From Octopus vulgaris (Eukaryota), in the NCBI GenBank assembly GCA_951406725.2, contig OX597823.1:96782001-96846000 (forward strand): a stretch of 64,000 nucleotides of DNA, read 5' to 3'. A model generated the notes under the pieces. It did not search any database. It saw only the letters and a list, made by a program, of their open reading frames with translations, and was not told the DNA's origin. Positions 4,481-27,955 of the stretch are shown here, piece by piece. The position numbers and the translations under genes are program-made. Numbering within the stretch: position 1 is the first letter of the stretch; each line of letters begins with the position of its first letter.

Positions 4481-5034
4481 ATTTTAAAAAGAGTCAATCA
4501 ACTTCATAATCTATTAAAATATTTGCAATTATTTTGTCTGCTTTACAAGCAAATTAGCTGTACTAGCCTTGATTTTTAAATTGTTAATTGCACTGAAATG
4601 CTTTAAGTGCTTGGTGAGTGTCTTTGCTATGAGCATTGCGCAGTTCTGGTTGTTTTAAACAAAATGTTAGCCCCACTTCATTTGGCTCGTAGGCTGACAC
4701 TATTAAATTTCAATTGAGTTATTATAAACCATTGAAATACTTGTCAGTTTACACAGTCTTGTTACAAGAGATGAACATCACCTACTCATGTTACTTATTT
4801 AAATTGCTTGTTGTACTGGAGAGTCCTAACGAGTGGAGGATACTGATGAGAAAAGGAAAGCTAATGACTTTTTGGCTGATACTCCCCTCCATGTTCTATC
4901 AACCCCGTGGCATTACCAGAAGATAGAGGTTCTTTTGGTGAGTTTTAGAATAGCTATCTCTACCTCATAGGGAAAGGAAGTGACAAGGAATGGGAGGGAC
5001 TTTTTTTTATCTTTAGTATTCCAGTATTTCACTG

Positions 5035-5248
5035 CTGTTGTTTTAACATCCACTTTTCCTTGCCAGCATGGATCAGACAGGATTTGTTGAATCAGATTTT
5101 CTTCCTCTCACCAATCTTCACCTGTTTTCAAGTCAGGTAATATTTCCCCATGGTCAGATGTTTTCACAGAAGATTGGAAACAAAGCGCCCTGCTTTCATA
5201 AGGGTGACACTTGTTTACAACTATTATGTAATGTTAAGACAAGGAAAC

Positions 5249-23770: not shown

Positions 23771-25210
23771 TGGTGGTGGTGGTAACGATGATGATGATAA
23801 TGATGATTAATTAGTAAAGTTGTGGAATATTACAAAACACTAATTAATCTTGTTATTTTATTTTCTCTTCTCATTTTCCCAATTCTTATTTCATTTGTAT
23901 GTTGAATGTTCTAATTAAGAGCATTGCAATTTGAGTAGCCAGACTATTGCTTAACGAGACTGACAGTAATTTTGCTATTGTCCTTGTGAGCTTTTGCTGA
24001 CATACTTGCTGCTATGAATTTACTCAATTAAAAGAAAATTAATTAAATTAGATATCACAGACCTAAAGAATTAGTAAATAATTCTTTAAAGTGTGCACTG
24101 CACCATCACCTCTTAGATCTAACCATTAAAATGTTAGGTGCCACAATTTATACCTTTTTGTTTGCTTGATTCCTTCAGTGTTTCAGAAAGTAAATTGGTG
24201 ATTTGCAGTGCTTGAGAAGATCCATCCAGCTAAGCACAAATGAGGCCCTAAAGGCATGTCCTTTTTGTCCATCTTACTTCCTCACACACAAAATCTGTTC
24301 CCTGAAAAACCTCTTCCCCCCATAATCCATTTCCTTGACCCTTTCATCCCCCCCACCACCACCACCACTTGAACTCACCATCCATTGTATTACCCTCCCC
24401 TCTATTTCCCCACTCTCCTTCATGAACCTACCTGCTCACAGTTTGTCCCTGTTTTTCTCACAACACACCCTTCTAATATGCCCTCCCCTTGTCTGTGTCC
24501 ACTCATTGCATTCCCTCCACCCACCATCTCCTGCCCTCCTTTTGCAACATCACAAACTTACCCACCCACCCAAACCCCTAATCCACTTCACTAAATACAC
24601 CTCCCTGTAACTTGCGGGTGTTCTCCCCCCCATCATCTCATCTTTACCATCTTATCTCCCCCCACCTGAGACAACCATGTTTCTTCTCTAGTGCAACACA
24701 CCTTTTCCTGTCCATCAATAATACTCCTCCATCTCAGTTGAAGGGCCTTGTCTTCCAAGATTTTTGGAAAAAGCACCCACCACTCTCTGTAAAGTGGTTG
24801 GCATTAAGGGTGGCATCCAATCTTTGAAACCTTGCCAAAACAGAAGACAGGGATGGGTGCAGTCTTCTGACTTTGCAGCCAATTCCTACCAACCCATCCA
24901 ACCCATGCCAGCATTGAAAACAGTCATTAAACAATGATGATGCTGTTGATGATGGTGTACCAGACACCAGTGTAATAATGACAAAGTTATTTTACCAAAT
25001 TCTTTGTTATTCTCAAAATTTATTGAAACAAAGGCAATATATTTCAACAGAAATAAGATCACAAAGGGGTTACCCGTTTTGATACCAGTCCACCTGAGAC
25101 TATGAGGTACAAACTTCCTGTGTTAAAGTGATCTAGGAACAAAACAAAAAACTTGGCAATTCTGAAACAACAATTGTTTACCATATTTCTGTTGAGATGC
25201 AGCACAAAGT

Positions 25211-25261
25211 TTTGTCAGTGAACAGTTTGCAGTCTCAAAGCGACGAAAATATTTTGACAAA
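25211..25261 (+). ncRNA. Minimal type I hammerhead motif with G3-C8 swapped core, inside a ~260-bp element (25136-25398)
   Basis: TTTGTCA-GTGAACA-GTTTGC-AGTCTCAAA-GCGAC-GAAA-ATAT-TT-TGACAAA: perfect 7-bp stem I, stem II, palindromic AATATT stem III. Confidence 0.7.
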
Positions 25262-25978
25262 TTAAATTTAAATGTTGAAGTGAATCTAACGGTTTTTGTG
25301 TGTTTCTTAAATGGCTTATAAACACCTTCCACGCTGCAATTGTTTTTGTTCCAGCACACCATCTCAGATCAAGTCACTTGCTATGCAAGTACATCTCCAA
25401 AATACTTTTCTTTCATTTTTTTATGAAAACAATGAAGAATTTAGTGAAATAATTGCAATATTAAGTTGGTGTTTGGAAATTTTGATGGCACTTTTAAATT
25501 TAGATCACTTTAAAGTAGTCTCAGGTTGGTTGGTATCAAATGGGTTAAGTGCTTCCTTGTCAAAATCTATTTTCCTCTTAGCTCTCATCCAATCAAATTA
25601 TTCTTGTTGAGAAGAACATCAGGATTTCCTTGAAATTTAAAATTTTCAGCATTTAATTAATTTCTATGGAATTTATTTAGTGTATGTAAAAAGCATTAGT
25701 GCTGGTGCCATGTAAAAAGCACCCTGCACACACTGTAGACTAGTTGGTGTTAGGGAGACATCCAACTGCAGAAACCAAAACAGACTATGGAACCTAGTTT
25801 GGCTCCTGGCCTTGCCAGCTCCTGGTACACCATCCAAACCATGCCAGCATGGAAAACAGATGTTAAATGATGATGATGATATATGGTGCAGGCATAGCTG
25901 TGTGGTTAAGAAGTTCACTACCCAACTATTGGGTTCAGGTTCAACCCTCCTGCATGGTACCTTGGTCAAGTGTTTTCT

Positions 25979-27502: not shown

Positions 27503-27955
27503 TTAGACCCTTTTGATACCAAACCCCCTGAGATCCCTTTAATACTAATCCTCCTGAGATATATCCTAGATCATTGATAGAAACTTCCTGCTTTAAAGTG
27601 ATCTAAATTAAAATCTCATTCAAAATTCAATGTTAATTTATGTTCTAAACACCGGTTTCATAGTGGCAAACTTATTTTCCTAAATTCCCCATTGTATCCA
27701 AAATTAATTAAAGCAAATGCAGTGTATTTCAACAGAAATATAGAAACAATAGGATTAATAATGACCAATTTATTTGACTAAATTCTTCGTTATTTTCAAA
27801 ATCAATTAAAATAGAGGCAGTGTATTTCAGTATAAATATGGTAATGAAAGGATTAATATTGTCAAAGTTATTTTACTAAATTTCTCGTTATTTTCAAATT
27901 AATTGAAACAATAGAACTGTATTTCAACAGAAATACTGTAACAAATGGATTTATT
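27503..27955. mobile_element. TTAA-type (piggyBac-like) MITE with its terminal ~98 bp triplicated
   Basis: Starts CCCTTTTGATACC; three successive copies of the AAGTTATTTT.CTAAATT...GTATTTCAACAGAAATA..GGATT unit (27657-27758, 27755-27855, 27853-27952). Confidence 0.7.

Follow-up and report, generated by a model that had tools for sequence, protein, structure and literature searches.

The window analysed here is a stretch of 64,000 nucleotides of Octopus vulgaris DNA, and the feature of interest lies on its forward strand between positions 25195 and 25398. Judged from its sequence, this feature is a pseudo-LTR stub of a Penelope-like element (PLE), which had been overlooked in an earlier sequence-only reading of the same DNA. 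The stub is composed of the following parts:

25195..25398, forward strand: solo pseudo-LTR with tail of a C-terminal-endonuclease Penelope-like element, a stub without RT; this is the extent shared by the copies, and it flanks the RT/GIY-YIG ORF on both sides in locus L187
25194..25196, forward strand: sharp 5' end, with the likely transcription start at A25195; G25194 is possibly cap-derived or may belong to the flank
25311..25397, forward strand: first 29 codons of the element ORF (MAYKHLPRCNC...); the same ATG opens a long ORF in L186, L187 and L145
25346..25398, forward strand: optional tail between two common 3' ends (about 25345; 25398-25404)

Window positions 25211-25261, inside this pseudo-LTR, form a real type I hammerhead motif with a G3-C8 core. 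Its parts are given below, with nucleotides numbered according to the established hammerhead convention:

25211..25217, forward strand: stem I, 5' strand, TTTGTCA, with 7 Watson-Crick pairs to the 3' strand
25218..25224, forward strand: core G3 U4 G5 A6 A7 C8 A9 (GTGAACA), with G3 at 25218 and C8 at 25223
25225..25244, forward strand: extra nucleotide 9a (G25225) and stem-loop II (25226-30 / 25240-44), with copy-specific substitutions at 25226 and 25228
25245..25254, forward strand: G12 A13 A14 A15.1 (GAAA at 25245-48), palindrome AATATT (25248-53, predicted intermolecular stem III), U16.1 and U17, with the predicted cut after 25254 (U17)
25255..25261, forward strand: stem I, 3' strand, TGACAAA

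Stem I, the core GTGAACA, the GAAA, the AATATT and the U at 25254 had all been pointed out from the letters alone, and each is present where it had been placed. The constituents expected of a three-way junction of type I, namely both stems, U4 G5 A6, A9, G12 A13 A14, A15.1-U16.1 and H17, are all present, and positions 3 and 8 form a Watson-Crick pair in the window motif as in its family (G3-C8). A C3-G8 pair is a hallmark of the active hammerhead fold, and its swap to G3-C8 is the classic rescue mutant. The core reads GUGAACA and not the canonical CUGANGA, and comparison of the window motif with Rfam gave no match at the gathering score and none of hammerhead type at E<=10. The stem III palindrome is perfect, 6 nt long and nearly invariant in the family; the dimer model that it would support is not the predicted minimum-energy cofold, and stem III of the monomer has 2 bp only.

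The Element Carrying the Motif

In longer copies of the family, the stub is preceded by a 3' UTR rich in (ATAC)n and, further upstream, by a GIY-YIG endonuclease. The link between stub and ORF was obtained from loci selected for this endonuclease, 27 of 30 of which hold the motif about 1 kb behind the endonuclease stop and on the same strand, while the remaining three stop short of that point or contain a second arm of the ORF. A protein of 1005 aa (P0002) encoded in L112 exhibits the RT motifs YVDD and DKS and a C-terminal PF01541 domain (residues 895-985, E 1.7e-5), and a CX3CxxC linker, CQSNCAVC, occurs in both P0001 and P0002. The complete arrangement, pseudo-LTR, ORF and pseudo-LTR, is found in L187, where two G3-C8 motifs at a distance of 4.26 kb from each other flank an RT/GIY-YIG ORF that starts 56 nt downstream of the motif and its cut. 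Because the ATG that opens this ORF matches window position 25311, the window stub can be read as a pseudo-LTR followed by 29 codons.

The family copies, not the window itself, have the single ORF of EN+ PLEs, in which a telomerase-like RT is joined to a C-terminal GIY-YIG domain; pseudo-LTRs in partial tandem, 5' truncation, inverted 5' copies and an optional tail are found as well. Neptune and Nematis elements are characterized by a CX2-5CxxC linker before the GIY-YIG domain and by (TA)n targets, as described in the relevant passages of PMC8557442. Such a linker and TA-rich 3' flanks both occur in the octopus family, which on these linker and target features appears to have the Neptune/Nematis layout. 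Tandem arrays of hammerhead-bearing units, as in retrozymes, are not the arrangement here, the window copy being single and most fetched copies being solo or inverted pairs. A tandem run of at least seven pseudo-LTR units of ~150 bp, each with the motif and with (TA)n in between, forms a retrozyme-like array in L147. An open frame at L036:4964-5510, adjoining a family copy, presumably resembles a dCMP deaminase exon.

Boundaries of the Stub and Genomic Setting

Copies of the family commonly extend from 25195 to about 25345 or to 25398-25404, are often followed by (TA)n and are often arranged head to head. Sequence continues upstream past the 5' end in 6 of the 100 listed copies that hold the 5' part (counted by eye), and no shared sequence was found 3' of the tail among 100 listed copies. 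A G precedes AGATG in 35 of the 53 copies that start there, at a position where the element itself has C or T (by eye). From this 5' end with its added G we infer that the copies were reverse-transcribed from a capped RNA whose first nucleotide corresponds to 25195.

The sharp 5' end and the added G come directly after a sequence resembling a branch point and splice acceptor. Use of this end as a splice acceptor (CTAAC, pyrimidines, CAG) is disfavoured, since no shared upstream exon was seen and a G is added instead. The upstream AUG at 25197 was dismissed as a conserved uORF, its reading frame being of different length between subfamilies (22 vs 7 codons).

The motif had earlier been assigned to an element of ~260 bp with short inverted ends, a proposal that does not agree with the boundaries of the repeat (25195-25398). 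Its left end, GGAACAAAA at 25136, falls outside the repeat, and the match of its right end, TTTTGTTCC, depends on the T at 25347, which has replaced the C found there in 86% of the subfamily's sampled copies; an inverted-end (MITE-like) element at 25136-25352 was rejected on both grounds. An AT-rich repeat with diverged inverted arms (24960-25032 and 25407-25476) lies on either side of the stub and has relatives at 27580-27915, 31342 and 57770. As these flanks match other AT-rich repeats of the window, with 25407-25476 inverted to 24960-25032, the stub seems to be inserted in an older repeat.

The 3-8 Pair Across the Family

When the motif context was searched with positions 3, 7 and 8 left free, 6183 occurrences were found in the genome, 5595 of which read exactly GTGAACA and a single one C3-G8; a downstream anchor was counted 9354 times. 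G3-C8 characterizes the family and is not a product of decay. The census bears out the sequence-only reading, which had taken GTGAACA for a natural G3-C8 hammerhead core unlikely to result from random decay and had proposed a genome-wide check of the consensus; homologous PLE hammerheads have C-G or U-A at these positions. Short descriptors do match by chance: any 3-8 pair turned up in 5 of 200 resamples, and G3-C8, under a looser descriptor, in 1 of 200 when the window was resampled with a first-order Markov model. Nevertheless, a chance motif, or the decay of a canonical CTGANGA core in the window copy, is an explanation of vanishingly small probability, refuted by a copy census in which identical cores occur by the thousands; the fixed position in the PLE pseudo-LTR and the homologous motifs of relatives likewise speak against it.

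A mismatched form, G3-G8, is present in 175 copies genome-wide. It outnumbers the C8>T transition at position 8 (96 copies) and is far more abundant than the corresponding transversion at position 3, G3>C (about 14 among 100 listed out of 146). Among 20 fetched loci (L263-L282), G3-G8 was found on several subfamily backgrounds and, on C16, linked to the ORF with separate junctions; it is common to both arms in two of three short inverted pairs. The G3-G8 lineage has spread, and a matched 3-8 pair is therefore not required for a round of transposition. ORF-linked copies of this lineage cluster on C16 at about 1.6-10.6 Mb.

Subfamilies were compared in 137 copies, a non-random sample picked by searches. 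Between the older and the younger subfamily, a difference is found at 1 of 42 structured positions and at 12 of the remaining 72 non-coding ones (p=0.03); loop II holds five of these 12. The sole structured difference is a gap placed in a T run, and with another placement the figures become 0/42 vs 13/72 (p=0.002). A second subfamily comparison gave 1/42 vs 9/72 (p=0.09).

State of the Window Copy

Stem II of the family is GTCGC/GCGAC, with G25225 as an unpaired extra nucleotide after A9. The window copy departs from the commonest letter of its subfamily at five positions, two of which lie in stem II: 25226 (position 10.1) is changed from G to T, and 25228 from C to T. Its predicted hammerhead fold reaches -5.1 kcal/mol, versus about -13 kcal/mol in the family (-12.4 and -13.3 for two natural copies), and its stem II pair probability is 0.05 or less versus 0.99-1.0. 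For family copies, the hammerhead fold is predicted with pair probabilities of 0.94-1.0. With two stem II substitutions and this loss of predicted stability, the motif can no longer be described as "apparently intact", and the window copy, slightly decayed, is predicted to be weak or inert as a ribozyme. Because 25226 and 25228 are substituted and G25225 is unpaired in the family, the stem II formerly drawn as GTTTGC/GCGAC closed by a G-C pair corresponds to a weaker, bulged register.

It is very unlikely that the window copy is an intact, active monomeric ribozyme inside a 260-bp inverted-end element. An alternative stem II closed by G25225-C25244 can indeed be drawn, and the core is then without the extra nucleotide. 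However, this register is bulged and has a probability of about 0.05, stem III of a monomer has just its two pairs, and the claimed inverted ends are not element ends. Moreover, minimal PLE hammerheads are described in the text of PMC4209133 as lacking monomer activity.

Homologous Motifs and Covariation

The closest sister family, found in the same genome, has 57% aa identity over the searched region, an ORF of 1312 aa and the same layout. Its motif occupies the same place and carries C3-G8 (53 of 53 occurrences), C9 and the same extra G; since the sister core has C9, cores appear to be permissive in this clade. Copies of the sister family are about 99% identical, and its hammerhead, located at L160:672-735 (reverse strand), combines C9 with a stem III palindrome that is imperfect. 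In L195, C9 occurs as in the sister family, but with U3-A8.

Hammerhead motifs were also sought in 69 metagenome loci of relatives. The descriptor matched 34 of them, many redundant, and these comprised 32 credible C3-G8 motifs, one U3-A8 motif (L195) and one match that is likely spurious; no G3-C8 was found among the 69 loci. The marine relatives L194 and L198 have C3-G8, and L196 has U3-A8 (by eye). The L194 motif (4970-5035) has U15.1-A16.1 inside its palindrome (by eye). A further, distant octopus PLE family, with 781-aa frames and many intact copies, has U3-A8 (L059, L061, L062, L065, L070 and L076). The A3-U8 form was not found among the loci examined.

In each of the six homologous motifs under comparison, positions 3 and 8 form a Watson-Crick pair, of which three forms occur. 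Because the C3-G8 sister and the C3-G8 and U3-A8 marine relatives all keep this pair, the swap may be regarded as natural covariation. An RT tree was built from 13 of 18 proteins, five having been dropped for want of a BLAST match in the longest frame. In this midpoint-rooted tree, the G3-C8 family joins its C3-G8 sister (98/99) and then falls inside C3-G8 L194 (93/91), a placement from which G3-C8 is most simply derived from C3-G8.

Cleavage or a Retained Fold

The reading that we favour, with a probability of about 0.6, takes the stub in the window for a decayed solo pseudo-LTR from an octopus PLE and the family motif for a putative slow, dimer-dependent, probably protein-assisted self-cleaving RNA, the window copy being predicted weak or inert. 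Transcription would start about 60 nt upstream of the cut. Within one pLTR-ORF-pLTR transcript, pairing via AAUAUU would join the two motifs, separated by 4.26 kb, in a double hammerhead. This would cut slowly after U17, probably with assistance from the protein of the element, and the cut would release a unit-length, uncapped RNA. As cutting is likely slow, most RNA would stay uncut, and the RT of the element would mostly copy uncut capped RNA back to the cap, starting within the ORF at 35 and about 90 nt from its beginning. The outcome would be thousands of 150-210 bp stubs in AT-rich targets, among them the window copy.

Partial rescue of activity by C3G/G8C double mutants had been given as established, and it is indeed reported: G8C is partly rescued by C3G (PMC8495972), and C3G/G8C partly rescues a PLE hammerhead, which in that study needs the PLE protein (PMC11167929). 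Nearest-neighbour energies place the double-hammerhead model 2-4 kcal/mol above two monomers, and it is not the predicted cofold. Copies that start exactly at the cut (25255) number 34; for six positions nearby, the corresponding numbers are 9, 25, 17, 16, 68 and 34. Some internal deletions and point changes are contained in every one of these counts. Of 100 sampled copies, 92 run through the cut site (by eye). With no peak at the junction, copies starting at the cut were discarded as proof of cleavage. The insertion template of the Poseidon element PAc of Anolis is uncut RNA (PMC11167929), and the same is expected for the octopus element, so the absence of a peak at the cut is a weak test of cleavage.

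The main rival to slow cleavage is a fold derived from a hammerhead that has lost useful cleavage and is retained as a structural or sequence signal (for protein binding, as an internal promoter directly downstream of the start site, or in RT template handling), G3-C8 being a historical left-over. The missing junction peak and the transposition of the G3-G8 lineage favour this rival. So do, in the passages cited, PAc catalytic mutants that have no effect on PLE insertion in vitro and the absence of RNA ends at the site in Anolis (PMC11167929), as well as the location of the motif, +17 to +67 relative to the inferred start, which is the region of internal promoters in PLEs (PMC8557442). Against it, all six homologous motifs preserve a Watson-Crick 3-8 pair, in three forms, and this pair forms only in the active fold (PMC3884650). 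In addition, loop II varies freely, which core and stems do not, and the spacing from start to G3 differs by one base between subfamilies. On this evidence, we consider a retained, non-cleaving fold less likely than slow cleavage.

A stronger version of the slow-cleavage reading can be put forward tentatively, with a probability well short of an even chance. It proposes that an actively spreading octopus PLE uses a selected, catalytically active G3-C8 hammerhead, and that the clade might tune the speed of cutting by core variants (G3-C8, U3-A8, C9 and U15.1-A16.1), sparing capped RNA for retrotransposition. As such variant cores escape CUGANGA descriptors and Rfam, many PLEs said to be without hammerheads may carry them if this proposal is true.

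Significance and Comparison with Known Systems

Pseudo-LTRs of PLEs are a well-known setting for hammerheads, and those of metazoan elements carry the minimal type I form (Cervera and de la Pena 2014, PMC4209133). Natural U3-A8 has been reported (PMC3088659; PMC4209133), and G3-C8 has been described as an engineered variant (PMC3884650; PMC11167929; PMC8495972). Natural G3-C8 was not found in the covered portions of the literature searched. The odds that a natural G3-C8 hammerhead is new to the literature are about even. Variants of PLE hammerheads have reportedly been surveyed on a large scale by Lunse et al. 2017. With its 5,600 or more natural G3-C8 copies, the octopus family would add a third natural form of the 3-8 pair. 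It would also provide a natural series, with a matched G-C, a mismatched G-G lineage and a C-G sister, for the question of what PLE hammerheads do, and it illustrates that standard hammerhead searches miss whole families.

The octopus motif resembles the hammerheads of PMC4209133 in being of type I and located in the pseudo-LTR, with an extra nucleotide between 9 and 10.1, G10.1-C11.1, a palindromic short helix III and mostly solo truncated copies. It also shares with them natural 3-8 covariation, represented there by U3-A8 in Schistosoma Cercyon. In contrast to those hammerheads, described as C3-G8 and U3-A8 only, the octopus family has G3-C8 and a longer stem I (7 bp). Natural core variants with 3-8 covariation and U15.1-A16.1, the latter found here in L194, are also known from Perreault et al. 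2011 (PMC3088659), whose text, in the sections concerned, lists U3-A8 only and not G3-C8. Non-LTR retrozymes (bioRxiv 10.64898/2026.07.22.740005) are comparable as short non-coding units with a type I motif derived from PLE pseudo-LTRs. Unlike their tandem arrays, octopus copies are dispersed as solo or head-to-head stubs with the ORF start and tail, and are tied to an autonomous element.

PAc (Frangieh et al. 2024, PMC11167929) differs from the octopus family in having C3-G8, with G3-C8 merely as an engineered partial rescue, and in an ORF that starts within stem II, versus 56 nt after the cut in octopus; the octopus element, unlike PAc, has the CX3CxxC linker of Neptune/Nematis types. Both elements have the hammerhead at the junction of pseudo-LTR and ORF as well as AT-rich targets, and the two 3' ends that define the octopus tail, inside the start of the ORF, match the two internal RT start sites of PAc (PMC11167929).
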